Part shown: in pieces, positions 1,385 to 25,466 of the stretch
Position numbering within the stretch: position 1 is the stretch's first letter
How the letters are laid out: every line of letters begins with the position of its first letter
NCBI GenBank assembly: GCA_016176845.1
Contig: JACOWJ010000016.1
Coordinates: forward strand, 1 to 25,876
Source of the DNA: Nitrospinota bacterium
Lineage (GTDB): Bacteria; 2-12-FULL-45-22; JACOWJ01
DNA: 25,876 nucleotides
Direction of reading: 5' to 3'
Notes under the pieces: model-generated
Seen by the model: the letters and a program-made list of their open reading frames with translations, nothing else
Told to the model about the DNA's origin: nothing
Databases searched by the model: none
Program-made: the position numbers and the translations under genes

Positions 1385-1402
1385 CTGTGTCCATCCTTGT
1401 CC

Positions 1403-1503
1403 ATTTGTGTCAACTTAACTCCTCTGGGAACGCGGGCGTCCCGCCCGCAAAGAGCGGCCAAGATGGCCGCGCTCCCAGCACCAACCTTAAGTTGACACAA
1501 ATG
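1403..1503 (-). mobile_element. MITE-like 101-bp element, copy A, in inverted orientation relative to copies B and C. It has 16-17-bp terminal inverted repeats and is flanked by a perfect 10-bp direct repeat ATCCTTGTCC (1393-1402 and 1504-1513).
   Basis: The element runs atttgtgtcaacttaa...ttaagttgacacaaatg. Its reverse complement aligns along its whole length with 2071-2171 and 13766-13866. The internal sequence is GC-rich and palindromic (cctgggagcgcggcc...ggccgc...gcgttcccagg). Confidence 0.75.
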
Positions 1504-1735
1504 ATCCTTGTCCGTCAAAATGGAGCTGAAAGCTCTTGACACGAAAAAGGAAATTCCTATACCTTTCAATTAACATTCTTTTAAGAAGGTCTGTATGATA
1601 TCTTGCCATATCCTCGATTTGGTTCTCGAAAAATCTAGCAACCAATTTAAAGATATCTTCATAAGCTGAATATAGATTGTGAAGCTTATAGGCCAAATTA
1701 ATAGTTAAATCTTCATTATAAATATCGCTTTTCAA
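1487..1735 (-). CDS. Small ORF of 82 codons with a TTG start, anomalously AT-rich. It is a candidate toxin partner of the upstream AbrB-type antitoxin. Its family was not recognised.
   Basis: The ORF lies 26 nt downstream of the antitoxin and is co-directional with it. GC is about 30% in a window that is otherwise about 60% or more; an 82-codon open frame is unexpected in such AT-rich DNA. The 3' end, including the stop codon, lies inside MITE copy A, so the native C-terminus is uncertain. There is no ATG start and no strong SD. The protein is MKSDIYNEDLTINLAYKLHNLYSAYEDIFKLVARFFENQIEDMARYHTDLLKRMLIERYRNFLFRVKSF... Confidence 0.3.
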   Translation of the reverse strand: MKSDIYNEDLTINLAYKLHNLYSAYEDIFKLVARFFENQIEDMARYHTDLLKRMLIERYRNFLFRVKSFQLHFDGQGSFVST

Positions 1736-1761
1736 TGTCGCAATTTTTTTCTCTATAGATC

Positions 1762-1995
1762 TCAGTCACGCTCGGCCGCTTCCCTCCGATCCTTTAGAAG
1801 GGCCTGGAGAAGGGAGGTCTCCCCCTTCAGGATCCCCCGAGATCCCTCAATGGGGTCCTCCATCAAAGGCCGAAGAACGATCACTCCGCCCTCGTCCACA
1901 ATGCTGACCTTGCTTCCCTTCCTGATCCCATACCTTTCTCGGATCTCGGCCGGAATGACCACTTGCCCCTTGGCAGTAGTGATTGATATGGTCAT
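1762..1995 (-). CDS. AbrB/MazE/SpoVT-family (swapped-hairpin) antitoxin-like DNA-binding protein of 77 aa.
   Basis: MTISITTAKGQVVIPAEIRERYGIRKGSKVSIVDEGGVIVLRP is the canonical AbrB/MazE/VapB N-terminal motif. The sequence GGAGGTG sits 7 nt upstream of the ATG at 1995. The 99-aa ORF on the provided track is an upstream over-extension. Confidence 0.7.
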   Translation of the reverse strand: MTISITTAKGQVVIPAEIRERYGIRKGSKVSIVDEGGVIVLRPLMEDPIEGSRGILKGETSLLQALLKDRREAAERD

Positions 1996-2070
1996 TCTAT
2001 ATACACCTCCTCTAAAGTTACAACTTGCTCCTAGCATATCACCCCGAAGAATCCAGGTCAATTCCTATTC

Positions 2071-2171
2071 ATTCGTGTCAACTTAAGGTTTAATCCTGGG
2101 AGCGCGGCCATCCTGGCCGCTCTTTGCCGGCGGGGACGCCGGCGTTCCCAGGGGTTAGATTGACACGAATG
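2071..2171 (+). mobile_element. MITE-like 101-bp element, copy B. The flanking direct repeat is degenerate (attcctattc / atccatattc).
   Basis: The element runs attcgtgtcaacttaagg...ggggttagattgacacgaatg with the same TIRs and the same length as copies A and C. Confidence 0.75.
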
Positions 2172-2363
2172 ATCCATATTCAGCAAAAGGGAAAAAGGGA
2201 GAAGGTCCGGAAATTTCCGGTTGGTTTTGGCCCGGGATTTTGATAGACTAGGCGGGTCAAACCACCTCGGCCGACGCGGCCAATTTCGTGAGGCATCAGG
2301 GACAAAGGGCGCGATCCGCGGCTCCCTCATGCCCCGCGGCAACTTTCAAGGGAGGGTCAGGAG

Positions 2364-3680
2364 ATGGCTTCAAAGGTCTACTTTATGGACGATCGGGCCT
2401 CCGGCGTGAAGGAGAGCCTGGTGGCCAAGATGCTTACCGTATTCGATGCTGCAGGGCTCGCCGATACCATCAAGCCGGGCGACTCGGTGGCCATCAAGCT
2501 CCACATGGGCGAGTACAACAACACCGCTTACCTCCGGCCCGTTTACGTGCGGGCCCTGGCGGACAAAATCAAGGGCCTGGGCGGGGAGCCCTTCGTGGTG
2601 GATACGACCACGCTGCTGGGCCTCTACGCCTCCCGGGCCACCGCCGTCGATTACCTGAAGACCGCCGCCCGCAACGGCTTCACCATGAGCACGCTGGGCT
2701 GTCCGGTGGTCATTGGCGACGGCTTTATCGGCAACGACGACGTGCGGGTGGACCTGCCCGAAGGTTTCATCCTCCAAGAACAGTACGTGGCCTCCGCCAT
2801 CGCCCTGGCCGACGCCATGATCGCCCTTTCCCACTTTAAGGGCCATCCGGTTGGCACTTACGGCGGGGCGATTAAGAACATCGGCGTTGGCTGTGCCTCG
2901 AAGCGAGGGAAGTACAACCTGCACCTCTCCCGCCACCCGAAATATGGGTTCCACATGCGCCCTCTCTACCCGGAGCGGTGCAAAGGGCGAAATTGCGCCA
3001 CCTGGCAGACTTGCGAGATCTGCTGTCCCGAGGGGGCCATCCAGATCACCGATACCACCATCAATTGGGACCGCAGCAAGTGCCACGGCTGCTTCGCTTG
3101 CGTGGGGGTGCTCCACTGTGGGGCCATCGAGTTCATCCCCGAGTGGTTCGACGCCACCACCGCGGGCATTGCCGATTCAGCCCGGGCCGCCGTCAAGACC
3201 TTCGCTCCCGGCAAGGTGGGCTTCGTTACCCTGGCGATTGATATCGTTCCCTGGTGCGACTGCGTTACCTTCAGCGACCGGCCCATCATTCCCAACATGG
3301 GCGTCTTCGCCTCCTACGACCCGGTGGCCATGGATACCGCTTGCGTCCAGATGGCCCAGCAGTCCGAGGGGATCCTCGGCTCAGCCGCCGAGGAGCACGA
3401 CGTGATGGCCCCCGGCACGATGAAGTTCGCCCACTGCAGCTCCTGGATGCCAGGCGGGGCCAAGAGCGAGGACGTGCAGCTGAACGCCGGGGTTTACAAC
3501 GGACTGGGCAGCAAGGAGTACGAGCTGGTCGAGGTGGGCAAGACGAAGCTCGCTTCCAACTTCCTCTACGCCACGGAACCGCTGACCCCGCGCTTCGGCC
3601 GACACATGAAGGTCCACCCCGTCTTTCCCGCGCAGGGATTCAAGTGGGTCGAGGACGTGGACCTGACGAAAGTAAGATAA
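2364..3680 (+). CDS. DUF362-family iron-sulfur protein. It has the conserved N-terminal domain plus two ferredoxin-like 4Fe-4S cysteine clusters.
   Basis: MASKVYFMDDRASGVKESLVAKMLTVFDAAGLADTIKPGDSVAIKLHMGEYNNTAYLRPVYVRALADKIKGLGGEPFVVDTTTL is DUF362-like. Cysteine clusters are CKGRNCATWQTCEICCPEGAI and CHGCFACVGVLHCGAIEF. GGGAGGG lies 7-8 nt upstream of the ATG. Confidence 0.6.
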   Translation: MASKVYFMDDRASGVKESLVAKMLTVFDAAGLADTIKPGDSVAIKLHMGEYNNTAYLRPVYVRALADKIKGLGGEPFVVDTTTLLGLYASRATAVDYLKTAARNGFTMSTLGCPVVIGDGFIGNDDVRVDLPEGFILQEQYVASAIALADAMIALSHFKGHPVGTYGGAIKNIGVGCASKRGKYNLHLSRHPKYGFHMRPLYPERCKGRNCATWQTCEICCPEGAIQITDTTINWDRSKCHGCFACVGVLHCGAIEFIPEWFDATTAGIADSARAAVKTFAPGKVGFVTLAIDIVPWCDCVTFSDRPIIPNMGVFASYDPVAMDTACVQMAQQSEGILGSAAEEHDVMAPGTMKFAHCSSWMPGGAKSEDVQLNAGVYNGLGSKEYELVEVGKTKLASNFLYATEPLTPRFGRHMKVHPVFPAQGFKWVEDVDLTKVR

Positions 3681-3706
3681 TCCGGGAGATCAGGGGGAGG
3701 AAAGGA

Positions 3707-4948
3707 ATGAAAAAGGAGGAGTTCTACCGAGAGGCCCGCTCCGATATGACGGGCCCCCTCCAGGGGGTCCGGGTATTGGAGGCAACCACCTCCCAGGCCG
3801 GCCCGATTGCCGGGACGGTCCTGGCCGACCTGGGGGCGAATGTGATCAAGATCGATCTGCCGGAGATGGGCGACATCATGCGCCATCTCCCCCCCTTCAT
3901 TGAGGGGGCGCCCAAGCTCAACTCCAGCTGCTACCACCTCAGCATCAACCGCAACAAGAAGAACATCAGCCTGGCGATCAACCGCCCCGCCGGCCAGGAG
4001 GTCTTCCGCAAGCTGGCGGCCAAGATGGACGTCATCGTCCAGAACTTCAAGCCCGGCACGATGGACAAATGGGGCCTGGGCTACGAGGCGATCAAGAAGA
4101 TCAAGCCCGATATCGTCTATGTCTCGGTCTCGGGCTTCGGACAGTTCGGCCCCAACCACCAGAAGCCCGGCTATGACCCCGTGGGGCAGGCGATCGGGGG
4201 ACTGATGAATGTCAACGGCTACGCGGACGGCCCCCCCACGCGCACGGGAAACGCCATGGCCGACAATATCACCGGCTGGCAGGGGGCCATTGGGGCCCTG
4301 GCGGCCCTGCACCATCGACAAATGACCGGAGAGGGTCAGCATGTGGACGTCTGCCTGGTCGATTCCATCCTCTACACCAGCGACTACGGCGTGATGGCCG
4401 CCTCCAACGCGGGTTTCAACTGGAAGCGGATGGGGAGCGGCAACCCGGCCGGCGGCCCCTGCGACGTCTACCGCTGCAAGGACGGCTATGTCTTCATCCT
4501 GGTCCTGATCGATTCTCACCACAAGCGATTCTGGCCGCTCATCGGCCGGCCCGAGCTCTACCAGGACCCCCGGATGCAGACTCCGGTCGCGCGGGCGCAG
4601 AACCTGCCCTTCATCAATCAGGTGGTGGGCGAGTGGACCCAGGACAAGACGGTGGAGGAGGTGGTGCGGCAGCTGGAGGAGGCCCAGCTGGTGGTGACCC
4701 CTATCTTCGATTTCCCCCAGATCGTGCGGAACGAGCACCTGCGGGAGCGGGAGATGGTGACCGAGGTGGAGTACCCCGACGTGGGCAAGCTGACGATCTA
4801 CGGCGTGGCGGCCAAGTTCTCCCGCACCCCGTGCAAGGTCCGAACCCACGCCCCGGCCATCGGCCAGCATAACGAGGAGGTCTTTGGGGAGCTGCTCGAC
4901 CTGGGGGCCGAGGAACTGGCCCAACTGCAGCAAGGGAAGATCATCTAG
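3707..4948 (+). CDS. Family III CoA-transferase (CaiB/BaiF family), paralog 1.
   Basis: GPLQGVRVLEATTSQAGPIAGTVLADLGANVIKID...SINRNKKNISL...DVIVQNFKPGTMDKWGLGYEAIKKIKPDIVYVSVSGFGQFGP...GYDPVGQAIGGLMNVNGYADGPP carries the family III signature, including the catalytic Asp region. The start is the ATG at 3707 with AGGGGGAGG upstream. The 564-aa ORF on the track is a 5' over-extension that overlaps DUF362. Confidence 0.85.
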   Translation: MKKEEFYREARSDMTGPLQGVRVLEATTSQAGPIAGTVLADLGANVIKIDLPEMGDIMRHLPPFIEGAPKLNSSCYHLSINRNKKNISLAINRPAGQEVFRKLAAKMDVIVQNFKPGTMDKWGLGYEAIKKIKPDIVYVSVSGFGQFGPNHQKPGYDPVGQAIGGLMNVNGYADGPPTRTGNAMADNITGWQGAIGALAALHHRQMTGEGQHVDVCLVDSILYTSDYGVMAASNAGFNWKRMGSGNPAGGPCDVYRCKDGYVFILVLIDSHHKRFWPLIGRPELYQDPRMQTPVARAQNLPFINQVVGEWTQDKTVEEVVRQLEEAQLVVTPIFDFPQIVRNEHLREREMVTEVEYPDVGKLTIYGVAAKFSRTPCKVRTHAPAIGQHNEEVFGELLDLGAEELAQLQQGKII

Positions 4949-4978
4949 TACTTAGTTGCGTTAATTCGCGTATAAGAA
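4946..4978. promoter_or_regulatory. Conserved 33-bp motif (tagtRcttagNNgcRttaattcgcgtataNNaa), copy 1. It begins on the stop codon of CoA-transferase 1. Its function is unknown.
   Basis: tagtacttagttgcgttaattcgcgtataagaa matches tagtgcttagcggcattaattcgcgtatacaaa at 14746-14778 at about 28 of 33 positions. Confidence 0.4.
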
Positions 4979-4984
4979 TCCCCA

Positions 4985-5069
4985 TTTCCGTCTAAGCGGG
5001 AATCCAGTATTTCTCTGGATTCCCGCTGGAGTTTACCCCGCACTTGATGCGGGGCAGGAATGACGGAAA
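4985..5069. repeat. REP-like compound palindromic element, copy 1. The core arms are agcgggaatccag / ctggattcccgct, followed by a second hairpin ccccgca...tgcgggg, and the whole is enclosed by tttccgtc...gacggaaa.
   Basis: Inverted repeats are visible in the sequence. The same core (gcgggaatccag, caggaatgac) recurs at 6708-6778. Confidence 0.6.
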
Positions 5070-5378
5070 CCGTCAAAATAACTAACGCTCACTTTTGCAA
5101 ATAAGTACCGCTCCAGAGGAAAAGGTATCCGAATAAACCGCAGAGGGCGCGGAGAGTGCATAGAGAACCCTCTTTCCCTCTTCTCTGCGGCCTCTGCGTT
5201 CTCTGCGGTAAATGGATACTTTTGTTGCGTGGAGTTCAAGCGCTAGCATTCCCCCGCCTCAGAGGAATTTCCTCCCCGGGTGGAAGGCGTGGAGCCCTTC
5301 GCAAAGGTGAGCTGTGGCCCTGTGCGTGGGGAAAGAGAACCCCCTGCAGAGGGCCTCTTCATCTGGAGATCCATATCC

Positions 5379-6623
5379 ATGAGAAAAGAGGAGTTCTACC
5401 GGGAGGCCCTCCCCGACTCCCGGGGGCCGCTGGAGGGGTTCCGGGTCCTGGAGGCCACCAACGTGGCAGCCGGCCCCCTGGCAGGGACCCTGCTGGCCGA
5501 CCTGGGGGCCGAATCGGTGAAGTGCGAGATGCCCGGGAAGGGGGACCTGCTGCGGCAGGTGACCCACTGCCAGGTGGAGGGGCCCTCGGAGCTGGACCGT
5601 AGCGCCTACTACCTGAGCATCAACCGCAACAAGAAGTGCATCACGCTGAACCTGAAGCACCCGGAGGGACAGGAGCTTTTCCGGCGGTTGGCCCGCCACG
5701 TGGATGTGGTGATCGAGAATTTTAAGCCCGGCACCATGGAGGGATGGGGCCTGGGCTACCAGGAGATCCGGAAGGTCAAGCCGGACATCATCTATACCTC
5801 AGTCTCCGGCTACGGCCAGTACGGTCCTTACAGCCATCGGCCGGGCTACGACCATATCGGCCAGGCGATGGGAGGGCTGATGAGCATCACCGGCTACCCC
5901 GACGGGCCTCCCACCAAGACCGGCCACGCCGTCGCGGACAACCTGGGGGGCTGGCAGGGGGCCTTCGGCACGCTGGCCGCCCTGGTCCACCGGATGAAGA
6001 CGGGCCGCGGTCAGCACGTGGACGTGAACCTGGTGGACGCCATCCTCTACACCACCACCTTCGGGATCATGGGCGCCGCCAATGCCGGCTGGCACTGGGA
6101 GCGCTGCGGCAACCGCCATCCGCTTGCCTCCCCCTCCAACACCTTCCCGTGCCGGGACGGCTGGGTGATCATGGCGGTGGCCTCCGACTCCCACTGGGCA
6201 AAGCTCTGCCGGCTGATGGGCCGGGAGGCGCTGATTGCGGATCCCCGCACCGCTTCCCCCGCCCTGCGGGCCGCCAACTGGCAGTTCGTCGAGGGGGAGG
6301 TGGCCGCCTGGACCCAGGGGAATACGGTGGCCGAGGTGGTGGATCGTTTCGAGGAGGCCGGTCTGGTCGCCTCTCCCATCCTCTCCTTCGAGGAGATCGT
6401 GCAGGACCCTCACTTCCGCGAGCGGGAGATGGTGGCTGAAGTAGAGCACCCCACCGCAGGTCCGCTAAAACTCTTCGGTGTGGCTTCCAAGTACTCCCTG
6501 ACGCCGGCCCGGGTCCATGCCCCCGCCCCCCTGTTGGGGCAACATAACGAAGAGGTCTATGGGGGCTGGTTGGAGTTGACTTCGGAAGAGATGGGAAGGC
6601 TCCGAGAGAAAGGGGTCATCTGA
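5379..6623 (+). CDS. Family III CoA-transferase (CaiB/BaiF family), paralog 2.
   Basis: MRKEEFYREALPDSRGPLEGFRVLEATNVAAGPLAGTLLADLGA...SINRNKKCITL...ENFKPGTMEGWGLGYQEIRKVKPDIIYTSVSGYGQYGP...GYDHIGQAMGGLMSITGYPDGPP is clearly paralogous to 3707..4948 along its whole length. ATG is at 5379. The track ORF 5280 is a GTG over-extension. Confidence 0.85.
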   Translation: MRKEEFYREALPDSRGPLEGFRVLEATNVAAGPLAGTLLADLGAESVKCEMPGKGDLLRQVTHCQVEGPSELDRSAYYLSINRNKKCITLNLKHPEGQELFRRLARHVDVVIENFKPGTMEGWGLGYQEIRKVKPDIIYTSVSGYGQYGPYSHRPGYDHIGQAMGGLMSITGYPDGPPTKTGHAVADNLGGWQGAFGTLAALVHRMKTGRGQHVDVNLVDAILYTTTFGIMGAANAGWHWERCGNRHPLASPSNTFPCRDGWVIMAVASDSHWAKLCRLMGREALIADPRTASPALRAANWQFVEGEVAAWTQGNTVAEVVDRFEEAGLVASPILSFEEIVQDPHFREREMVAEVEHPTAGPLKLFGVASKYSLTPARVHAPAPLLGQHNEEVYGGWLELTSEEMGRLREKGVI

Positions 6624-6707
6624 CAGGCCGAGCCCGCCGGACACCATGGGCCCTACTTGCAAGAATTATTTTTTTAGGGACTTTCGAAAAATAGATTGGT
6701 CCGAGTC

Positions 6708-6778
6708 GTCATTCCCGCGAAAGCGGGAATCCAGGCAACTCATATCAAAATCTGGATTCCTGCTTTCGCAGGAATGAC
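6708..6778. repeat. REP-like palindromic element, copy 2. It is a near-perfect 27-bp-arm inverted repeat, gtcattcccgcgaaagcgggaatccag ... ctggattcctgctttcgcaggaatgac. It is the source of spurious 'IPAKAGIQ' / 'IPAFAGMT' ORFs on both strands.
   Basis: Track ORFs 6696..7115(+) and 6740..6937(-) both translate the palindrome arms (VIPAKAGIQ, WIPAFAGMT). Confidence 0.65.
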
Positions 6779-6789
6779 AAACAACGGGC

Positions 6790-6990
6790 TATTGGGGAAG
6801 GAGCCCTCGCTCGTGAAATTGCGCCCCCAAGAGGTGACAGGGGCTATCTCCCCCGAGTCCCAGCCCCTGGTGTCGCTGGTAATTACATGCGTCACCGCGC
6901 CGTTGTTAACCCATTGGACGTCATCCCCGATACGCACTACAATGAGCTGGGGCGCGAAGGAGAAGTCGTTGATCGAGACCCGGGCTGGGG
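6790..6990 (-). pseudogene. Cupredoxin (amicyanin/pseudoazurin-like blue-copper protein) N-terminal fragment. It is truncated just before the Cys-His-Met ligand region by REP-like copy 2.
   Basis: The minus frame reads ...VSINDFSFAPQLIVVRIGDDVQWVNNGAVTHVITSDTRGWDSGEIAPVTSWGRNFTSEGSF and then runs into PNSPLFVIPAKAGIQ, which is the REP element. The pattern F-x-F-x-P-x-x-L-x-V-x-x-GD-x-V-x-W-x-N-x-x-x-x-H-x-V ... F-T-x-x-G-x-[FY] is the cupredoxin signature. The expected downstream C-x-x-H-x-x-x-x-M is absent. Confidence 0.4.
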
Positions 6991-7179
6991 ACGGTGAAAT
7001 CGGCCCGGCTCTCGCTCGGAAGGCCTCCCGAGCCGTCCAAAAGGCGCCCGATGAAGCGGCCTATAGGCTTGACCGAAGTCAACAGTTTTTCGGAGGGTTT
7101 CTCCGAGTCTGGTGAAGCTTTCAGCTTGCCTGTGGCCGATAGATGCGGTATCCTACGGGCAGGGGTAAACTGGTAGTTT

Positions 7180-7276
7180 AATCGCATAGGAATTTCCATT
7201 TTTAAGTGGCTAGAGGCTAGGGGTTTGCAAAAGTTCTTCTTCACTAACCCCTAGTCCCTAATCCCTAACCCCTAAC
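7180..7276 (-). repeat. TAGGG-type palindromic repeat element, copy 1, in minus orientation. It carries the terminal AATGGAAATTCCTATGCGAT module.
   Basis: The reverse complement, ...ttaggggttagggattagggactaggggttagtgaagaagaacttttgcaaacccctagcctctagcc...aaaaatggaaattcctatgcgat, aligns with 10399-10503. Confidence 0.65.
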
Positions 7277-7315
7277 TTGAGAGAGGTTTCGAGGGTTTCG
7301 AGCTTCCAGCGAGCC

Positions 7316-7618
7316 ATGCCGAGGATCATCCCTACAGATCGCCATACATTAGATGAAGTTGCCCAGGCCGTGGTCATGGGGGAGCGGGGCTTGGGGCATG
7401 AGTTGGACCGGATCGCTGACGATATGGCCAGGTTGATGCTGAATCGGTTGGCGGCATCTGGTGCCCCTGGCTTTCATCGGGTTGCGCGAGAGCAATGGTA
7501 CGCCCCCCGCCACTGGCAGGCCATCTCAGCGCGTTACAGCGCTGATATGCTGAAGGCGATTCTGTCGCGGGTGGACAAATACCTGGCGGCCTTCGCGCAG
7601 AAGGCAAAGGATGCATGA
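7316..7618 (+). CDS. Small protein of about 100 aa, translationally coupled to the downstream nucleotidyltransferase. It is a putative antitoxin or partner. The start codon is uncertain.
   Basis: The TGA stop at 7616-7618 overlaps the ATG of the next ORF at 7611. No recognisable domain was found. Upstream of the start lies a 9-bp tandem direct repeat, ggtttcgag x2 (7286-7303). The protein is MPRIIPTDRHTLDEVAQAVVMGERGLGHELDRIADDMARLMLNRL... Confidence 0.4.
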   Translation: MPRIIPTDRHTLDEVAQAVVMGERGLGHELDRIADDMARLMLNRLAASGAPGFHRVAREQWYAPRHWQAISARYSADMLKAILSRVDKYLAAFAQKAKDA

Positions 7619-8243
7619 GCTTCGTAGCGATGACATGGATGCCTTCTTCCGCGCGTTGGCGAGGAAATTGCCCTGTCGCGTGAAAATTATTGTGACCGGA
7701 GGGGCAGAAGGGCTGCTCCTGGGCTCGACGCGCCCCACCCGCGACATTGACTTCGGCATCCTCCTCCGCGCGGGTCCTGACGAGCAGGCAGCCACCTGGG
7801 AGGCAGTCGAATCTGCCATCATGGAGGCGGCGGAAGAAACGGGCGTAACCGCACAATATGCCCAGGACATCGACCGCTGGTCGTCCGTTGCGGTCCCCCG
7901 ATATGACCTCCACACGCGGTTCTACCGGCGATTCGGGTGTGCCTATGTCCATCTGTTGGAACCAGCGTATTGGGCGGTTTACAAGCTGGCACGCTATCTG
8001 GACGCGGACGTTGCAGATTTGATCGCGGTGTTACGGACGCAGGGAGTGCCACCACGACAACTAGCCAAAGTGTGTGGGAAGGCGTTGCGCTCCAGCCCGC
8101 GATCATCCTCATTATTCCTGTTTCGCCGGCATGTGGAACACTTTTTCCGCGAGCACGGTCCGGCCATTTGGGGTCAAGGCTTTGACCCTTGTCGGGCGAT
8201 CGCCGCTTTTCACCATGCAGCGGGGATCCAGGAGCGGCCCTGA
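7611..8243 (+). CDS. AbiEii/DUF1814-like nucleotidyltransferase, a toxin-like component of a type IV TA or Abi-like module.
   Basis: The N-terminal motif IIVTGGAEGLLLGSTRPTRDIDFGILL matches the AbiEii hallmark GGxAxxLxxGxxRxTxDIDF (a pol-beta NTase GS...DxD signature). It also contains RRFGCAYVH (R-x6-H). Confidence 0.5.
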   Translation: MHELRSDDMDAFFRALARKLPCRVKIIVTGGAEGLLLGSTRPTRDIDFGILLRAGPDEQAATWEAVESAIMEAAEETGVTAQYAQDIDRWSSVAVPRYDLHTRFYRRFGCAYVHLLEPAYWAVYKLARYLDADVADLIAVLRTQGVPPRQLAKVCGKALRSSPRSSSLFLFRRHVEHFFREHGPAIWGQGFDPCRAIAAFHHAAGIQERP

Positions 8244-8694
8244 TCAACTATCCATTTACCAAATGGAAGCCCATGTCGGTCAGGATGATCATTTTTTGTG
8301 CCTTCTCAATAAATCGGGGCACAACCGAAAATTCCTCCGGAAGACTTCATATTTTTTCAATGGGTTAGGGGTAGAGGTTAATCGAGTTGCCCCGGATTTT
8401 TGAGAAGATACGAAGAAAGTGTAAATAAGGGAGAAATAACTCAAGAGGCAAAAGAAGGCAAATCAATCGCAAGAAAGTCGATAGTAAAATAAAGCCAAAG
8501 AGGAAAGAAAGAAAAGAAAAACTCGGCCTAACGACGTAATGGCAGCCGCGGCAACCTTTTCCCGGACGGTTGGCTCTCTCCCTGTCACATCTTGCTTTAG
8601 GGTCAGTAGTTCCTGCACGGTCGCTTCCAACCTTTTCTCACTGCCGAGAAAGCAGGTCCCATGAGGCCGAAGTGAATCTGCGAAAGAGAATCGA

Positions 8695-9084
8695 GTGCCC
8701 GACAAGAGCTTGAAAGACAGGATTGCCATCGTAGGCATCGGGGAAACCGAATTTGTCAGGGCTTCTGAGAAGAGCCTGGAAGAGCTCGTCATGGAGGCCG
8801 TTCTCAAGGCGATTGAGGATGCAGGCCTCTCGGTGCAGGAAGTCGATGGTCTGGTCACCGATGCCACCATCATGTGGCCGCGGATTAAAGCGGAAGATGT
8901 GGGTCGCAACCTGGGAATAGCGCATCGCACGTTCTCCGCCTGTATGTCGCTCGGGGGCGCGGGGGTAGTGGGTGCTCCCCTGCTGGCGGCTGCCGCGATT
9001 GACCAGGGTCTGGCCAGGAACATCGTGTGCTACTTCGGGGTTGACTGGGGCTCGGCGTCCGGGTATCTCGAAAGGAGGGATCGA
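8695..9084 (+). pseudogene. N-terminal fragment of about 125 aa of a thiolase-like (SCP-x/BbsB-type) protein. It lies in frame directly upstream of the AKR gene.
   Basis: [50 protein letters not shown]...[43 protein letters not shown] is thiolase N-domain-like. The remaining approximately 260 aa of a thiolase are absent. Confidence 0.5.
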
Positions 9085-10071
9085 ATGCGACGCGCAAGCT
9101 TGGGGACGAAGGGGCTTACGGTATCCGCGATCGGGCTGGGCTGCATGGGGATGTCACAGTCCTATGGCAAGGCCGATCTTGCCGAGTCCGAACGGACGCT
9201 GCGTCGAGCGGTGGAGCTGGGGATCGACTTTTTCGATACGGCAGACGGCTATGGCTGGGGACACAACGAGCAACTGGTCGGACGGGTGCTCGGCTCGATC
9301 CGCCATGAACTGAAGATTGCCACCAAGTTTGGCATGGTGCGATTGCCGGGGGGCAAACGGAGCGTCAACGGTCGGCCGGAGTATGTGCGGCAAGCGTGTG
9401 ATGCCAGCCTTTCGCGGCTCGGGATGGAGGTGATCGATCTCTACTACCTGCACCGCAAGGACCCGCAGGTAGAGATCGAAGAGACGGTCGGCGCCATGGC
9501 GGAGCTCGTCACGGCGGGCAAGGTCCGGTATCTCGGATTGTCGGAAGTTTCTGCCGCGACGCTGCGCAGGGCCTGCGCCGTGCACCCCATTGCAGCGGTG
9601 CAAAGCGAATACTCCCTCTGGACACGGGACCCGGAATCCGGGGTGCTGCCGGCCTGTCGCGAGCTGGGGGTGGGGTTTGTGCCGTTCAGCCCGTTGGGCC
9701 GCGCGATACTGACCGGCCGCCTGGTATCGACCGAGGGCCTGGACGAGCAAGACATGCGGCGCACCATGCCGCGGTTTCAAGGGGAGAACTTCGAGAAGAA
9801 CCGGGAGCTGGTCGCCCGCGTCTCGGCCCTGGCAGAGCAGAAAGGCTGTACGGCGGGTCAGCTGGCGCTGGCCTGGCTGCTGGCGCAGGGCGACGACATC
9901 GCCCCGATCCCCGGCACCAAGCGCGTCCGCTATCTGGAGGAGAACGCCGCGGCGGTGGACGTGGTGCTGTCGGCGCAGGAAGTGGCGCACCTGAGCGAAC
10001 TGATGGCGCCCGGGGTGGTGTCGGGTGCCCGTTACGCCCCGGAAGGCATGTCCTTGCTGGATCGGGATTGA
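9085..10071 (+). CDS. Aldo/keto reductase (AKR) family oxidoreductase of 328 aa.
   Basis: [69 protein letters not shown]...[44 protein letters not shown] lies 6 nt upstream of the ATG at 9085. Confidence 0.85.
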
Positions 10072-10207
10072 CCTGGAGATGGGGCGGCATGGGGGCTTCC
10101 ATATCGATGGAACCTCACCCTCTCCGCTTCGACTGGCATTCGAGGCCGCCCGGCCATTCCCGGGCCCTTCGACCATTTTCGCACGAGGAGGCAACCGCTT
10201 GCGACCT

Positions 10208-10378
10208 GTGAGCGCTTCGAGACATTCGCCCATCGGCATCCTGGGGGCCATGCCCGAGGAGACCGAACCCTTCCTGGAGACCCTGGAGGGGAGCCAATCG
10301 CAGCCAGAGGGGAGGTTCCGGTTCCACCGGGGGACCTACGGGGACCGGGAGGCCATCGAGTGCTATGAGCTCCCCTGA
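10208..10378 (+). pseudogene. N-terminal fragment of about 50 aa of a PNP_UDP_1-family nucleosidase (MTA/SAH nucleosidase or futalosine hydrolase-like). It is truncated at the TAGGG element.
   Basis: SPIGILGAMPEETEPFLETLEGSQSQPEGRFRFHRGTYGDREAIEC fits the Pfs/MtnN N-terminus (IGIIGAMxEE...G..F..G...G.EV). A stop follows, and then the repeat begins at 10399. Confidence 0.45.
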
Positions 10379-10398
10379 GAGGAATCTTAAAATGATCC

Positions 10399-10503
10399 AG
10401 TTAGGGGCTAGGGATTAGGGACTAGGGGCTAGTGAAGAAGAATTGTTGCTAACACTTAGCCCCTAGCCCCTCAACAATGGAAATTCCTATGCGATAGATT
10501 TAT
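10399..10503 (+). repeat. TAGGG-type palindromic repeat element, copy 2, full length.
   Basis: agttaggggctagggattagggactaggggctagtgaagaagaattgttgctaacacttagcccctagcccctcaacaatggaaattcctatgcgatagatttat. It has tandem TTAGGGN heptamers on the left arm, with their complement on the right arm. Confidence 0.7.
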
Positions 10504-10538
10504 CAGGCGGCCTGGCGTTGCGTGGACCAGAAAGGAGG

Positions 10539-11936
10539 ATGGAAGTGACCCATTCGGCGAAAGCAAAGGGAGGAGCGGCGGTGCTCCTCCTGCTCGCCTG
10601 CCTCCTCTTCACCTTGGAGGCGAGGGCCGGCATGGACGAGCGCGTGGTGGAGACGGTCCTCTCCAACGGCATGAAGGTGATCCTCCTGGAGAACCACAAG
10701 GCTCCCATGCTCACCTTCCAGGTATGGTACCGTTTGGGCTCCCGGAACGAGGTATGGGGCAAGACGGGCCTCTCTCATATGCTCGAACATATGATGTTCA
10801 AAGGAACCCAGAAGATCGGCCCCGAGGAATTCTCCCGCATCATCCAAGAACAGGGGGGAGTGAACAACGCCTTCACCTCGCAGGATCTTACCGCCTACTT
10901 TGAGAACCTCAGCGCAGATCGGGTCGACGTGGCGATCGAGCTGGAGGCGGACCGGATGCGGAATCTCCTCCTCCGAGAGTCGGACTTCCGCACGGAGCGC
11001 ATGGTGGTGATGGAGGAGCGGAGGCTTCGCACGGAGGACAGCCCCAAGGCCTATCTCTCGGAGCAGGTAGAGGCCACGGCGTTTCAGACATCGCCCTATC
11101 ACTGGCCCGTCATCGGCTGGATGCGGGACCTGGCCGATTTGACCCTGGAGGACCTGAAGGCTTACTACCAGGCCCATTACAACCCCAGCAACGCCTTCCT
11201 GGTGGTCGTGGGAGACTTCAAGAAAGAGGCGCTCCTGCCGAAGATCGAGCAGGCCTTCGGAGCCCATTCCTCGGGGACGGCGCCCAACCAGGAGAAAAAC
11301 GTTGATCCCCCTCAGCTCGGAGAGCGCAGGGTCGTGGTGCAGAAGGAGGCACGGCTCCCCTTCCTGGTGATGGGCTATCATGTCCCCAACCTGCGAGAGC
11401 CGGATAGCTACGTGCTGGAGCTGATCGCTGCCCTTCTCGCCAAAGGGAAAAGCTCCCGGCTTTACCAGTCCCTCGTCCGGGAGAAGCGACTTGCGCTGGA
11501 TGTTGCGGCCGACCATTCCCTGCTCTCCCGGGACCCCAATCTCTTCTCTTTTACTGCCACCCCGCTTCCCGGCAAAGAGGCGGCTGAGGTGGAGCGGGCT
11601 CTGGACGAGGAGATCGCGCGGCTCCAGCGGGAGCCCGTGGGGAAGTACGAACTGGAAAAGGCAAAGAACCAGCTCGAGGCCGCCTTTATCTCCGGACAGG
11701 ACGCGATCTTCAAGCAGGCCATGCTCCTGGCCCAGCACGAGATCGCGCTCGGCTGGAAGGCGATCGACCAGTACCTCCCTTCCATCCGGAAGGTCTCTCC
11801 CGAGGAGATCCAGCGGGTGGCGAGCCGCTACCTGATCCCCCAGAACCGCACCGTGGGGGTCCTCGTACCCCTGCCACCCAAAGAGGAGAAAGCTCCGCAG
11901 CCCGGATCTCCCGTCCAAAAACAACCTGTCAGGTAA
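10539..11936 (+). CDS. M16 (insulinase/pitrilysin) family zinc peptidase, the catalytic subunit, with an N-terminal signal peptide. An alternative GTG start lies at 10545.
   Basis: HMLEHMMFKGT is the inverted zincin HxxEH motif. Signal-like sequence is AAVLLLLACLLFTLEARA. GGAGG lies upstream. Confidence 0.85.
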   Translation: MEVTHSAKAKGGAAVLLLLACLLFTLEARAGMDERVVETVLSNGMKVILLENHKAPMLTFQVWYRLGSRNEVWGKTGLSHMLEHMMFKGTQKIGPEEFSRIIQEQGGVNNAFTSQDLTAYFENLSADRVDVAIELEADRMRNLLLRESDFRTERMVVMEERRLRTEDSPKAYLSEQVEATAFQTSPYHWPVIGWMRDLADLTLEDLKAYYQAHYNPSNAFLVVVGDFKKEALLPKIEQAFGAHSSGTAPNQEKNVDPPQLGERRVVVQKEARLPFLVMGYHVPNLREPDSYVLELIAALLAKGKSSRLYQSLVREKRLALDVAADHSLLSRDPNLFSFTATPLPGKEAAEVERALDEEIARLQREPVGKYELEKAKNQLEAAFISGQDAIFKQAMLLAQHEIALGWKAIDQYLPSIRKVSPEEIQRVASRYLIPQNRTVGVLVPLPPKEEKAPQPGSPVQKQPVR

Positions 11937-11945
11937 GGAGACCGC

Positions 11946-13361
11946 ATGTTCTTTGTTAGCACATCCCCCCCATTATGGCCGGGACAACCCGGGAAGAAAC
12001 CGGCCCGGAGGTTCCCGTTCCTCAGGAGCCCAAGATTCTCATCCCTTATTGGATTCCTCGTCTATGTCATGCTTGGACTGGGGCTGCTGGAGCGCACCGC
12101 TCTGGCCATACCACCCGTGCAGCGAACGATCCTTCCCAATCAGCTGGTCCTCCTCGTGAGCGAGGAGCACTCCTTGCCCCTCGTTACCCTTCAGCTTCTG
12201 GTGGACGCAGGATCCTGGAGAGATCCTCAAGGAAAGGAGGGGCTGGCCTACGTGACGGCCAACGGGCTCCTCTTGGGGACCTCAAAGCACAGGGCCACGG
12301 TATTGAACGAACTGCTCGATTTCATCGGGGCTTCCCTGGACGCCTCGGGGGGAAGGGATTATGCCACGCTGAGCCTCCAAATCCTGAAAAAGGACCTGGA
12401 TCAGGGACTCGATCTCTTCCTGGAGGCGCTCACCCAACCCACCTTCCCGGAGGAGGAGATCCGTCGGGAGATCGAGAAGACGCTGGGGAGCATCCAGGCT
12501 GCTGAGGATCAACCCACGGCCGTTGCGACCAAGGCGTTCCAGAAGGCCCTCTTTCCCTCCGGTCCTTATGACCATCCCGTCGAAGGGACCCGGGACTCCC
12601 TCCCCAAACTCAGCCGTGAACTGCTCGTGGACTTTTACAGGACCTATTACCATCCCAACAACGCCATCCTGGCCGTGGTGGGAGATATCACCCTGGAGGA
12701 GGCCCAGGCCAAGCTCCTCCTTCGGCTGACCGCCTGGCCCCAGGGCAAGATCCCCAAGTCTACGGTCAACCCTCAATTCGCTCAGGGACCTGAAAAGATC
12801 CAGATCGACCGGCCGATCACCCAGGCCAACATCATGATCGGGCATGGGGGGATCAGCCGGGAGAACCCGGACTATTACGCGCTCACCGTCATGAATTACA
12901 TCCTGGGGGGCGGGGGCTTCGCCTCCCGGTTGGTGGAGGAGATCCGGAGCGCGCGGGGACTGGCCTACTCGGTGAGAAGCAGCTTCGATCCGGGCAGGTA
13001 CCCGGGGCCCTTCCAGATCGTCCTGCAGACGAAAAATGCGTCCGCCCGCGAGGCGATCTCCCTCGCCCTGCAGCAGATGGAGCGTCTGCAGAAAGAGATG
13101 GTCTCGGACAAAGAGCTGGAGGGAGCCAAGAAATATCTTGTCGGCAGCTTCCCCTTACGGCTGGGCACCCAAGCCAATCTGGCCGGCCTTCTCGTTCAGG
13201 TCGAATACTACGGCTTGGGCCTGGACTATCCTGAGAGGTACCCCTCCCTCATCCGCTCCGTCACCCGAGAGGACGTGCTGCGAGTCGCGCGAACCTATCT
13301 CCACCCGGAAAGCTGCATCCTGGTCGTTGTGGCCAACCTGAAGGAGGCCAAGCTGGACTAG
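11946..13361 (+). CDS. M16 family peptidase partner subunit. It lacks HxxEH and is probably the non-catalytic member of the pair.
   Basis: The fold and length match the upstream M16 gene, but there is no HxxEH. AAGGAG lies 6 nt upstream of the ATG. The N-terminus is hydrophobic. Confidence 0.75.
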   Translation: MFFVSTSPPLWPGQPGKKPARRFPFLRSPRFSSLIGFLVYVMLGLGLLERTALAIPPVQRTILPNQLVLLVSEEHSLPLVTLQLLVDAGSWRDPQGKEGLAYVTANGLLLGTSKHRATVLNELLDFIGASLDASGGRDYATLSLQILKKDLDQGLDLFLEALTQPTFPEEEIRREIEKTLGSIQAAEDQPTAVATKAFQKALFPSGPYDHPVEGTRDSLPKLSRELLVDFYRTYYHPNNAILAVVGDITLEEAQAKLLLRLTAWPQGKIPKSTVNPQFAQGPEKIQIDRPITQANIMIGHGGISRENPDYYALTVMNYILGGGGFASRLVEEIRSARGLAYSVRSSFDPGRYPGPFQIVLQTKNASAREAISLALQQMERLQKEMVSDKELEGAKKYLVGSFPLRLGTQANLAGLLVQVEYYGLGLDYPERYPSLIRSVTREDVLRVARTYLHPESCILVVVANLKEAKLD

Positions 13362-13482
13362 TACAGCTTGGCGCAAGTTTCTCGCTGGGATTGCGAGAAG
13401 GCCCTCGCCAAGGCCCGAGAGATCTTCCCCAAGGGGCAGGGGGGATGGATAGGTTGGGTCAAATAAGGAGTTGCAAACCCCC

Positions 13483-13511
13483 TTGACTTTCTCCACCTCC
13501 TGCGATATTAT
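13483..13511 (+). promoter_or_regulatory. Sigma70-like promoter candidate: TTGACT, a 17-nt spacer, then TATTAT. It lies about 400 bp upstream of the activase gene.
   Basis: The -35 hexamer is at 13483-13488, the spacer is ttctccacctcctgcga, and the -10 hexamer is at 13506-13511. Confidence 0.4.
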
Positions 13512-13765
13512 GCGCCCATAACCTGCTGCCTCATGTACCGCCTATTTTTCTGCCAGCCTCACTGACGCCAGTTGGCAATACCTTCCGGACGCTTCTCATT
13601 CCGATTCGCATCTGGGGCCGCTCAGCCAGAGAGACTTCGATATTTTTGCAGTAAGTTCTCGCACATGCTCGTTAAAGACCCATGGGGAGGGCCTTCGGGC
13701 GCCTTTATTCGTCATCCCAGGGCGGGTTACGAGCTTGTGGAGCCGGGTTAGACCCAACGGCTTTC

Positions 13766-13866
13766 ATTCGTGTCAACTTAAGGTTTAGTCCTGGGAGCGC
13801 GGCCATCCTGGCCGCTCCTTGCGGGCGGGGGCGCCCGCGTTCCCAGGGGTTAAGTTGACCCGAATA
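13766..13866 (+). mobile_element. MITE-like 101-bp element, copy C. It is flanked by an 11-bp direct repeat CAACGGCTTTC (13755-13765 and 13867-13877).
   Basis: attcgtgtcaacttaagg...ggggttaagttgacccgaata, with the same TIRs and length as copies A and B. Confidence 0.8.
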
Positions 13867-13913
13867 CAACGGCTTTCAACTTACAACGCTCAAAGCATGA
13901 GGAGGGTCAGAAG

Positions 13914-17434: not shown

Positions 17435-17511
17435 GGGGCTAAAGAGCTCGTAGCTCATGGCTCATAGCTATGAGCTACGAGCCATGAGCTAGGGCTAGGG
17501 AATCATTCCCC
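17435..17511. repeat. Imperfect long palindrome carrying CTAGGGCTAGGG and flanked by GGGG...CCCC. It sits immediately after the stop of the preceding gene. It could be a terminator or a variant of the TAGGG repeat family.
   Basis: ggggctaaagagctcgtagctcatggctcatagctatgagctacgagccatgagctagggctagggaatcattcccc. Confidence 0.5.
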
Positions 17512-19245: not shown

Positions 19246-19294
19246 ACTAGTCCCTAGTCACTAAAAAAATGGAATTCCTGGACGATAAATTTAT
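19246..19294 (+). repeat. Partial copy of the TAGGG-element terminal module (ctagtccctagtcac...AATGGAATTCCTGGACGATAAATTTAT). It sits directly at the gpsA start.
   Basis: About 25 of 30 positions match 10476-10503. Confidence 0.5.
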
Positions 19295-20312
19295 GAAAAG
19301 GGTGGCGGTGATCGGGGCGGGTAGCTGGGGCACCACGCTGGCCAATCTGTTGGCCGATCGGGAATTGGAGGTCGGGCTGTGGGTCTATGAGCGCGATCTG
19401 TGCCAGGTGATGATCCAAAAACGGGAAAACCCTCTTTACCTGCCGGGTTTTCCCCTGTCCCCGGGGGTTCATCCTGCTTCCAGCCTGGAGGAGGTTGCGC
19501 GGGGAGCGGAGTCCTTCATAACGGTTTGTCCCTCTCAAACGTTACGGGGCGTCATCGCTGAGTTGGTTCCCTTCCTGCCGTTTCATCCCCTGATCGTTAG
19601 TGCCTCCAAAGGATTGGAAAAGCTTTCGCTCTACACTTGCTCTCAAGTATTGGAGGAGGCCGTTCCAGCGGCCTTGCAACCCAGGATTGCCGTGCTTTCG
19701 GGACCGAGCTTCGCCCGGGAGGTGAGTCAAGGGCATCCCACGTTGGTGGTTGCATCCTCTAAGGAACCCGAAGCGGCCGGGCAGGTTCAACGGCTCTTCT
19801 CCACTTCCGCCTTTCGGGTTTACACCAATACCGACATGTTGGGAGTGGAGTTGGGCGCGGCGCTGAAGAACGTGATCGCGATCGCAGCCGGGATCTCTGA
19901 TGGCCTCCGTTTCGGCCACAATGCCCGTGCGGCCCTGATCACGCGGGGATTGGCGGAGATCGCCCGGCTGGGGGTGGCCATGGGGGCCTCCCCTTTGACC
20001 TTTTCCGGGTTGGCCGGAATGGGAGATCTGGTCTTGACCTGCACCGGAGACCTCAGCCGCAACCGCAGCCTGGGACTTCGGCTGGGACAAGGGCAAAGGT
20101 TGGAAGAGATCCTGCGCGAGATGAAGGCGATCGCTGAGGGGGTAGAGACTGTACAGGCCGCCGTAGCCCTTGGGAGGAGGTACCCGGTGGAGATGCCGAT
20201 CTCGGAGGCGGTCCACGCGGTATTATACGAAGGAAAGAGACCCCAAGAAGCCGTGGCGGAATTGATGGGGCGAGCCCCGCGCCCGGAGTTCGAGGAGTGG
20301 CTGATCGCTTAG
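19293..20312 (+). CDS. gpsA: NAD(P)H-dependent glycerol-3-phosphate dehydrogenase.
   Basis: MKRVAVIGAGSWGTTLANLLA... is the canonical GpsA N-terminus. The length and C-terminal blocks also fit. Confidence 0.9.
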   Translation: MKRVAVIGAGSWGTTLANLLADRELEVGLWVYERDLCQVMIQKRENPLYLPGFPLSPGVHPASSLEEVARGAESFITVCPSQTLRGVIAELVPFLPFHPLIVSASKGLEKLSLYTCSQVLEEAVPAALQPRIAVLSGPSFAREVSQGHPTLVVASSKEPEAAGQVQRLFSTSAFRVYTNTDMLGVELGAALKNVIAIAAGISDGLRFGHNARAALITRGLAEIARLGVAMGASPLTFSGLAGMGDLVLTCTGDLSRNRSLGLRLGQGQRLEEILREMKAIAEGVETVQAAVALGRRYPVEMPISEAVHAVLYEGKRPQEAVAELMGRAPRPEFEEWLIA

Positions 20313-20336: not shown

Positions 20337-20413
20337 AGTTAGGGGGTTAGGGATTAGGGACTAGGGGCTAGTGAAGAAGAATTTTTGCTAATCCCTAGCC
20401 CCTAGTCCCTTAA
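20337..20413 (+). repeat. TAGGG-type palindromic repeat element, copy 4. It has near-perfect arms and lacks the terminal module.
   Basis: agttagggggttagggattagggactaggggctagtgaagaagaatttttgctaatccctagcccctagtccctta. Confidence 0.7.
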
Positions 20414-20457
20414 AATCGGTGTCCATCTGTGTCTCCAACCAAGGAAACGGCGGTACG

Positions 20458-25412: not shown

Positions 25413-25466
25413 AACCTAACACCTAACACCTAACACCTAACACCTAAAACCTAAAACTTAAAACTT
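25413..25466. repeat. Tandem heptamer array: (CCTAACA)x4, then (CCTAAAA)x2, then CTTAAAA. It lies between convergent genes.
   Basis: aacctaacacctaacacctaacacctaacacctaaaacctaaaacttaaaac. The reverse complement is TTAGGTG-type and is related to the TTAGGGA heptamers of the TAGGG elements. Confidence 0.7.

Follow-up and report, generated by a model that had tools for sequence, protein, structure and literature searches.

A probable two-layer repeat with IS231-type ends and a REP-doublet core in a Nitrospinota contig

What are the three short palindromic repeats in contig JACOWJ010000016.1 of a Nitrospinota bacterium (GenBank assembly GCA_016176845.1), and what could have moved them? The stretch analysed, positions 1 to 25,876 of the forward strand and here called the window, had been interpreted previously from its letters alone. 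That sequence-only reading described the repeats as MITEs (miniature inverted-repeat transposable elements) bearing terminal inverted repeats (TIRs) of 16-17 bp and target-site duplications (TSDs) of about 10 bp. Our analysis supports this description and points to a further level of organization. In the explanation that we favour, with a probability of roughly 0.78, the repeats are non-autonomous mobile elements of two layers: an outer MITE shell with ends of the type found in insertion sequence (IS) IS231, and an inner doublet of repetitive extragenic palindromes (REPs).

Three copies and their ends

The three copies, A, B and C, were found where they had been reported. They are 86.5-91% identical in a common orientation (A/B 86.5%, A/C 87.5%, B/C 91%), and their flanks are unrelated; the 100-bp flanks show 46-54% similarity, which is the background level. 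Inverted arms of 17 bp bound every copy, with 17/17 complementary positions in A and 15/17 in both B and C. The window TIRs read CATTCGTGTCAACTTAA, with full arms CAT...GTGTCAACTTAA. When the motif ATTYGTGTCAACTTAASS was searched for with up to three mismatches, it occurred six times in the 25.9-kb window, at precisely the six predicted ends; 0.03 occurrences are expected in a shuffled window, and none of 100 shuffles reached six.

Direct repeats abut the TIRs and are perfect at A (10/10) and C (11/11) and degenerate at B (8/10), as had been described. The base preceding each 'ATT' is C in all copies, and the final base is G in A and B, which makes the outermost C ambiguous; with that base in brackets, the perfect TSD units are ATCCTTGTC(C) and CAACGGCTTT(C). 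Because the wider TIR family described below mostly ends in CAT...ATG, we write the copies as 102 bp with TSDs of 9, 9 (7/9) and 10 bp. An element of 101 bp with TSDs of 10-11 bp is the same observation with one ambiguous base reassigned. The original places thus hold, and the original length of 101 bp is better given as 102 bp. The features of the three copies are as follows.

MITE copy A: 1402-1503, minus strand (B and C have the opposite orientation), 102 bp, ends CAT...ATG
Copy A TIR, first arm: 1402-1418, plus strand, CATTTGTGTCAACTTAA; its partner arm is TTAAGTTGACACAAATG, 17/17 complementary
Copy A TIR, second arm: 1487-1503, plus strand, holding an outward-facing TTGACA at 1492-1497
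Copy A TSD, left: 1393-1402, no strand, ATCCTTGTCC; 9 bp (1393-1401) if C1402 is the element start
Copy A TSD, right: 1504-1513, no strand, ATCCTTGTCC, 10/10
REP-doublet core of copy A: 1424-1478, minus strand, outer stem CTGGGA.C / G.TCCCAG around two hairpins
MITE copy B: 2070-2171, plus strand, 102 bp, intergenic, between two divergent genes (MazE-type antitoxin and DUF362)
Copy B TSD, left, degenerate: 2061-2070, no strand, ATTCCTATTC; 8/10 relative to the right copy
Copy B TSD, right, degenerate: 2172-2181, no strand, ATCCATATTC
REP-doublet core of copy B: 2096-2151, plus strand, hairpin 2 with the compensatory change GCCGGC...GCCGGC
MITE copy C: 13765-13866, plus strand, 102 bp, between M16 peptidase and activase genes
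Copy C TSD, left: 13755-13765, no strand, CAACGGCTTTC; 10 bp (13755-13764) if C13765 is the element start
Copy C TSD, right: 13867-13877, no strand, CAACGGCTTTC, 11/11
REP-doublet core of copy C: 13791-13846, plus strand

No open reading frame (ORF) of at least 60 aa lies wholly inside any copy; copy A is overlapped by ORFs 1381-1569 and 1487-1735 (minus strand), both of which extend well past it. The size of the repeats, their non-coding nature, the TIRs, the abutting TSDs and the unrelated flanks bear out the MITE reading. Element boundaries were consistent from copy to copy, the flanks were not conserved, and Rfam gave no match. Taken alone, the repeats add one family to the bacterial MITEs and mark three intergenic insertion sites in a catabolic gene region.

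Transposition had also been called recent, and this holds in part. The perfect TSDs at A and C indicate that these two insertions are not ancient, 'recent' being a relative and uncalibrated term. The copies nevertheless diverge by 9-13.5%, and some of their differences are concerted: position 5 of the TIR is T/A on both arms of A and C/G in B and C, and hairpin 2 of the core reads GCCGGC...GCCGGC in B and GCGGGC...GCCCGC in A and C. The copies therefore appear to derive from distinct source lineages, not from one recent burst.

Logan short-read contigs carrying the DUF362, activase, MazE, MshEN-domain and M16 peptidase genes adjoining the copies were collected by exact-protein match, and came from runs SRR12113418, -21, -22, -26 and -29 and SRR4343435. 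All contigs of the DUF362, activase, MazE and MshEN genes stop within copy A, B or C; those of the M16 peptidase gene stop near its stop codon, short of copy C. Contigs that end inside the copies indicate that the same insertions are present in those samples, with the assembly graph branching there; these separate assemblies confirm that the element is a dispersed repeat. The element thus explains short-read assembly breaks at three sites in the source organism.

The outer shell and the search for its transposase

The ends of the IS231 subgroup of the IS4 family have the consensus CAT-------AA--TAA---, and its direct repeats are 10-12 bp long (De Palmenaer et al., Table 1, PMC2266710). The window ends, CATTCGTGTCAACTTAAGGT, fit this consensus at all eight specified positions. 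We also read the ends of IS231F from plasmid pBtoxis, where they are CATGCCCATCAACTTAAGAA and ...GGA and where the two copies have TSDs of 11 and 12 bp. The window ends are identical to those of IS231F at 14 of 20 positions, including a run of 10 nt, TCAACTTAAG. The window repeats measure 9-11 bp, depending on the 1-nt choice of boundary, against the IS231 range of 10-12 bp.

A scan for the TIR in one genome per species (596 Gb) gave at least 115 loci, against about 35 chance matches expected, by our own estimate, for a pattern of this information content. Among the matches listed there were at least 59 inverted pairs, 78-650 bp apart, with interiors unrelated to that of the window elements. 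A looser search with a 12-mer gave at least 65 pairs, the three in the window included, whose termini are mostly CAT...ATG and whose perfect TSDs are mostly 9-10 bp. The listed matches lie mostly in Cyanobacteria (Nostoc, Microcoleus, Calothrix, Symploca, Caldora) and also in Anaerolineae and Chloroflexia; one paired element among them is in a Planctomycetota metagenome-assembled genome (MAG). Chance probably accounts for the single unpaired matches in other groups, such as those in Streptomyces, Enterobacter and a Deltaproteobacteria MAG. The occurrence of TIR pairs around many unrelated interiors identifies the TIR as a transposon end that works with different contents. Taken with the duplications, this suggests that a DDE cut-and-paste enzyme of the IS4/IS231 type acts on it in trans. 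Ends of the IS231 type, which according to earlier descriptions hardly occur outside the Bacillus cereus group, would then bound large MITE populations in Cyanobacteria and Chloroflexota, as well as the copy in the Planctomycetota MAG.

In Anaerolineae and other Chloroflexota, MITEs of 80-104 bp have the same TIR and TSDs of 10-11 bp and enclose a different GC-rich hairpin, CCCGTCCCCGGG..CCCGGGGACGGG (L numbers denote retrieved loci):

L037: 7166-7246
L082: 193-273
L098: 1620-1700
L109: 2681-2760
L068: 1397-1499
L095: 4492-4595

The same genomes also have this hairpin outside shells: it lacks TIRs at 374-420 of L037 and lies in a roughly 125-bp tandem repeat at 3530-3990 of L098. Shell interiors vary by lineage and are made of short palindromic repeats, which, where checked (the window core and the Anaerolineae hairpin), also occur outside shells. 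Many of the cyanobacterial members (L035, L067, L096, L103, L116 and others) are inserted in near-palindromic targets, GGCA(N)TGCC, so that their flanks can be read as direct and as inverted repeats. These targets are reminiscent of the GGG(N)5CCC target preference reported for IS231A.

The transposase had been predicted to lie outside the window, and Pfam scans of 20 ORFs and tblastn searches with the IS231F transposase and a REP-associated tyrosine transposase (RayT) found none there. The IS231F protein likewise had no tblastn match in any retrieved locus. Clustering of inward-pointing ORFs across the genome loci revealed no recurrent transposase, and none of the ORFs that start near TIRs in these loci is a transposase. 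Long TIR pairs in L013, L022 and L114 were considered as a parent IS and rejected, as they enclose ordinary genes. A truncated DDE_5 ORF beside the TIR in L022 was rejected as the shell transposase: its full-length relatives, of 441 aa and named IS701 family by NCBI, have other ends, CCCTCTTCTGTCACTCTCCGAGA (CCCTCTTCTGTCAC...), and TSDs of about 4 bp. Cyanobacterial IS701-like elements with a 441-aa transposase, ends CCCTCTTCTGTCACTCTCCGAGA and TSDs of about 4 bp were also observed in L281-L289, as tandem or nested copies from one metagenome.

Among plasmids, the IS231F transposase matched 873 records, nearly all from Bacillus or Clostridium; the organisms listed include no cyanobacteria. Six plasmid records matched a 30-nt TIR consensus from cyanobacteria, and the two that were inspected (H1 and H4) have no transposase nearby. 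The scan of viral contigs gave 29 loci, all of them single chance matches with neither a partner TIR nor a transposase, and a literature search gave no relevant match for the TIR or core strings.

These results bear on whether the shell might belong to some other DDE family that makes TSDs of 9-10 bp, its resemblance to IS231 being convergent. Such a family would account for the lack of a parent among the loci, for a TSD mode that falls below the 10-12 bp of IS231 when CAT...ATG ends are assumed, and for the near restriction of IS231F-like plasmid transposases to Bacillota. It would leave to coincidence the match at eight of eight consensus positions and the 10-nt run shared with IS231F. Moreover, none of the other IS4-related end consensus sequences tabulated in PMC2266710 fits, and the sole transposase remnant beside a TIR, that of L022, is IS701-like with its own ends and duplications. 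We regard this alternative as unlikely and prefer an IS231-type shell.

The inner core and the two-layer explanation

The GC-rich internal palindrome of the earlier description is present in all three copies; it proved to be not simply a part of the MITE but a separate, widely spread REP-doublet module linked to RayT. The core is 55-56 nt long and consists of an 8-bp outer stem, CTGGGAGC / GYTCCCAG, around the hairpins GCGGCCA-TCY-TGGCCGC and GCGGGCG-GGA-CGCCCGC; in copy A these are GCGGCCA-TCT-TGGCCGC and GCGGGCG-GGA-CGCCCGC. A 22-mer from the core, GGAGCGCGGCCATCYTGGCCGC, was found in at least 120 metagenome contigs (at least 164 instances) from many different datasets, and the contigs span 44-72% GC. 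None of the 22-mer matches listed has an IS231-like TIR within 50-80 nt. Of the 164 listed instances, 140 close with GCGCTCC within 150 nt, and the module is most often 46-52 nt long. Its two REP units, GGAGC-GCGGCCA-TCY-TGGCCGC and GCGGGCN-RGA-NGCCCGC-GCTCC, are inverted and separated by spacers of 2-22 nt. By the definition of a REPIN in PMC3337134, the core is a REP doublet in the sense applied to REPINs and bacterial interspersed mosaic elements (BIMEs).

Modules occur singly, as long perfect hairpins (L129, L141, L153, L219) and in tandem arrays. Tandem arrays of doublets were observed in L134 (4881-5900 and 13131-13460), L127, L183, L234 and L240, with periods of about 45-61 bp; the L134 array has at least 18 units of 61 bp, and the arrays resemble E. 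coli BIME-2. They are not CRISPRs, because they have no unique spacers. Genes of many kinds adjoin the modules: the 126 neighbours represent 132 Pfam families. The core module had no match in plasmids. The GTAG and CGTC tags of two large REP superfamilies are absent, the head of the unit being (CT)GGGAGC; this excludes those superfamilies and not REPs generally. Another class of repeats, in L123, L130, L137, L142, L150, L201, L210 and L231, shares hairpin 1 only (GGAGCGCGGCCATCYTGGCCGC AGTGC...), continues with the motif ...GCTTTTTTCGACC and recurs every 200-500 bp or so.

Eight of the 120 listed core loci encode homologous Y1 transposases, which are 32-59% identical to the L182 protein. They match Pfam Y1_Tnp, and their best NCBIfam model is REP_Tyr_transpos, the REP-associated tyrosine transposase (E 1e-16 to 1e-22). 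Both flanks of the Y1 gene are available in five loci; in every one of these, modules lie on either side of it, the nearest 0-122 bp away and all in one orientation relative to the gene. These RayT-like Y1 genes flanked by doublets are:

L182: 378-1355
L228: 1766-2535
L139: 5618-6404
L189: 711-1498
L218: 8451-9165

The hairpin GCGGCCA-NNN-TGGCCGC is kept in these five loci, where the proteins are merely 38-59% identical. The RayT-like protein has 2556 homologues, many of which are called 'REP element-mobilizing transposase RayT' by JGI; named members of the family come from Verrucomicrobia, Hydrogenedentes, Poribacteria, Sumerlaeia, KSB1 and Nitrospirota.

Given this association, could the whole 102-bp unit be a REPIN- or BIME-type element moved by RayT, a Y1 enzyme, with the presumed TIRs no more than the outer part of its palindrome? 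The entire unit is indeed one long imperfect palindrome, and its core is a RayT-associated doublet. To our knowledge, however, Y1/HUH transposition (IS200/IS605 family) makes no target-site duplications, and direct repeats of 10/10, 8/10 and 11/11 abut the TIRs here. The TIR also bounds dozens of unrelated interiors, and at least 164 instances of the core are free of it. Movement of the complete unit by RayT is thus highly improbable, and a shell with its own mode of transposition is preferred.

Folded as single-stranded DNA, copy A is predicted to form the TIR stem, the outer stem and the two hairpins, at -36.5 kcal/mol (z -8.4). The z-scores of the copies range from -6 to -8.5, as RNA and as DNA. 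For 35 diverse modules, the named structure (outer stem plus two hairpins) has 94.3% of cells paired, compared with 88.7% in shuffles, and 36 double-change cells, compared with 10.5 in shuffles (none of 500 shuffles reached 36); seven pairs are compensatory. RNAalifold on the modules favoured one long imperfect hairpin over the outer stem with two hairpins, and both folds are possible for a palindrome.

Stable folds and compensatory changes of this kind would also be expected if the repeat were not mobile DNA but a structure under selection, for example one that terminates or attenuates transcription, stabilises mRNA or belongs to a small RNA family. In addition, all three copies share polarity with the gene immediately downstream, an arrangement with a probability of 1 in 4 by chance. 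Other results are against such an element. Rfam 15 gave no match at gathering thresholds over the window, and none on the elements even at E<=10 over 1350-2250; terminator calling detected no terminator-like site, with a T-tract, at any of the three copies. Flanks and neighbouring genes are unrelated, and the TSDs are the footprint of insertion. We therefore consider a purely structural origin quite improbable. A role in the host acquired after insertion is compatible with a mobile element of two layers.

Under the two-layer explanation, the shell would consist of the two 17-bp TIRs, with their IS231-subgroup signature, and a small number of subterminal bases. Another part of the genome would encode a DDE transposase of the IS4 family, which would bind the TIRs, excise the element and insert it at staggered cuts about one helical turn apart, and so generate the duplications. 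The REP doublet may have inserted into the TIR-hairpin loop of an ancestral minimal shell and been carried along with the shell since then. Speculatively, the fold may help to bring the ends together, because the element is too short to bend easily as double-stranded DNA. If such packaging is functional, it would link two classes of non-autonomous elements that are usually treated apart.

The same core was also observed in a second type of shell, 100-104 bp long, with ends GTAA(C/G)CGTTCA..CCCCC and TSDs that are mostly 8 bp:

L155: 1397-1499
L180: 10308-10411
L202: 901-1003
L207: 11491-11592
L225: 1227-1326

The TSDs are perfect in L180 (CCGCAGTG) and L207 (GTTCAATT), 9 bp long in L155 (ATACCCGCC) and 7/8 in L202 and L225. 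Ends of the GTAAGCG type with 8-bp TSDs are the signature of IS66 among the ISfinder families, so the second shell appears IS66-like, to judge from its ends and duplications. On the simplest reading, a minimal shell would take up, at its centre, the small palindromic repeat resident in its host and carry it from then on. Tentatively, doublets of one widespread RayT family may be centred in shells of at least two unrelated DDE families, IS231-like and IS66-like, although we hold this broader proposal to be doubtful. If it is true, MITE hairpins may offer, in their single-stranded loop, a favoured landing site for Y1-driven insertion; alternatively, doublets would gain a second, RayT-independent means of spread within and between genomes in DDE-mobilised shells. 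Either would qualify the view of REPIN populations as confined to vertical descent with a single RayT.

Several observations count against the two-layer explanation. If CAT...ATG ends are assumed, TSD length is 9-10 bp, which just reaches or narrowly misses the 10-12 bp of IS231 and lies nearer to the range of IS10, IS50 and IS4Sa. Neither the window nor the 115 genome loci listed, the 29 viral loci or the plasmid matches yielded an autonomous IS with such TIRs, so the family of the transposase is deduced from the ends and the TSD length only. No empty site was present in the exact-protein contigs of the adjoining genes, all of which stop inside the element or earlier, and the closest homologues (80% identity), which are not syntenic, gave none; mobility is accordingly read from structure. 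Among the matches listed, which are a sample, the TIR and the core module occur together nowhere outside the window. The RayT-like proteins score 58-78 bits, under the curated NCBIfam cut-off of 80, and their link to the doublet is seen in metagenome loci of other organisms, whereas the three modules of the window are all inside shells. In the covariation test, hairpin 1 was fixed by the search pattern and is hence uninformative. Finally, DNA-level repair can keep palindromes symmetrical without selection for function.

Neighbouring genes, other repeats and comparison with known systems

The copies had been placed in 5' leaders upstream of the DUF362 and activase genes and against the start of a gspE remnant, and the measured distances agree with this. 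A 121-aa MshEN-domain ORF, part of a broken gspE/gspF region, has its ATG (1384, minus strand) 18 bp from copy A. In this region (125-1384) a type II secretion ATPase/platform is broken into the 121-aa ORF and a 256-aa ORF that fuses fragments of T2SSF and of the T2SSE C terminus; Logan contigs yield the same gene calls, so the break does not stem from misassembly here. Copy B ends 193 bp upstream of the DUF362 gene (2364-3680, ATG at 2364), with the MazE-type antitoxin gene (1762-1995, minus strand) on its other side. Copy C begins 404 bp downstream of the M16 peptidase stop (13361) and ends 47 bp upstream of the ATG (13914) of the BcrAD/BadFG-type activase.

A sigma-70-like promoter match, TTGACA-18-CAAAAT at 1492-1521 (10/12, consensus match only), points outward from copy A, the right TIR arm of which supplies the -35 sequence. 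Another candidate promoter, also a consensus match only, lies at 13483-13511, upstream of copy C. Copy C may belong to the activase leader, because it lies between this candidate and the activase start. If transcribed, the element might, we speculate, act as a strong hairpin in the leaders of neighbouring genes.

In L278 (SRR4343435), an intact PIN (VapC-type) toxin gene comes after the MazE gene. The window is identical to L278 up to the first bases of the PIN gene and continues as an AT-rich stretch with a HepT-like fragment (ORF 1487-1735). The altered segment (compared region 1504-1760) sits between the inverted copies A and B.

Other repeats are present in the window. An unrelated intergenic family has three copies, at 7170-7280, 10396-10506 and 20343-20415, which are 85-90% identical, one of them inverted. 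It is made up of heptamers of the CTAGGGG/TTAGGGA type, which form a palindrome around TGAAGAAGAAT; two of its copies share an extra flank, AATGGAAATTCCTATGCGAT, similar to 1546-1575 and 19267-19296. There is a tandem run of the heptamer ACCTAAC at 25414-25462 and a 46-nt near-perfect palindrome, AGCTCGTAGCTCATGGCTCATAGCTATGAGCTACGAGCCATGAGCT, at 17445-17490.

The outer shell resembles IS231 in several respects. Its ends begin with 5'-CAT, positions 11-12 are AA and positions 15-17 are TAA, the run TCAACTTAAG is as in IS231F, the TSD is about one helical turn long, and the ends tolerate foreign DNA between them. The MIC231 cassettes of the Bacillus cereus group, which are non-autonomous IS231 derivatives, offer a parallel. 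IS231 elements can hold extra DNA and passenger genes (PMC2266710). Unlike IS231, the family has yielded no transposase, TIR positions 4-9 are TCGTGT in place of GCCCAT, and the TSDs are 9-11 bp rather than 10-12 bp. The hosts also differ: they are Cyanobacteria, Chloroflexota, the source of the Planctomycetota MAG and the host of the window (60% GC), and not Bacillota, to which the IS231 subgroup has been described as almost exclusive (PMC2266710).

The core resembles the REPIN/BIME-RAYT systems in having two inverted short hairpins with a short spacer, in occurring singly or in arrays, and in lying on either side of lone Y1 genes. Its two units are different hairpins, as are the Y and Z units of E. 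coli BIMEs. It departs from the main REP superfamilies in its head, (CT)GGGAGC and not GTAG or CGTC. Unlike lineage-specific REPINs, the same 22-mer is found across contigs of 44-72% GC and with RayTs that are 32-59% identical, and unlike REPINs and BIMEs, the doublets of the window occur solely inside a DDE-type shell.

Among cyanobacterial elements, the MITE Nezha of Anabaena and Nostoc is 130-170 bp long, has a 10-bp direct repeat in its quoted copy (CATTATCTAC) and shares its TIR with ISNpu3. The cyanobacterial members of the present TIR family, of 160-205 bp with TSDs of 9-10 bp, are likened to Nezha by size and repeat alone; the window element is shorter and has another interior. Elhai and colleagues are said to have described, in 2008, very small palindromic repeats that are both free and nested in cyanobacterial MITEs. 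In the TIR family, too, members from cyanobacteria and Anaerolineae have interiors made of short palindromic repeats. The window element differs from those nested repeats in its host, which is not cyanobacterial, and in its nested unit, a REP doublet of the RayT type.

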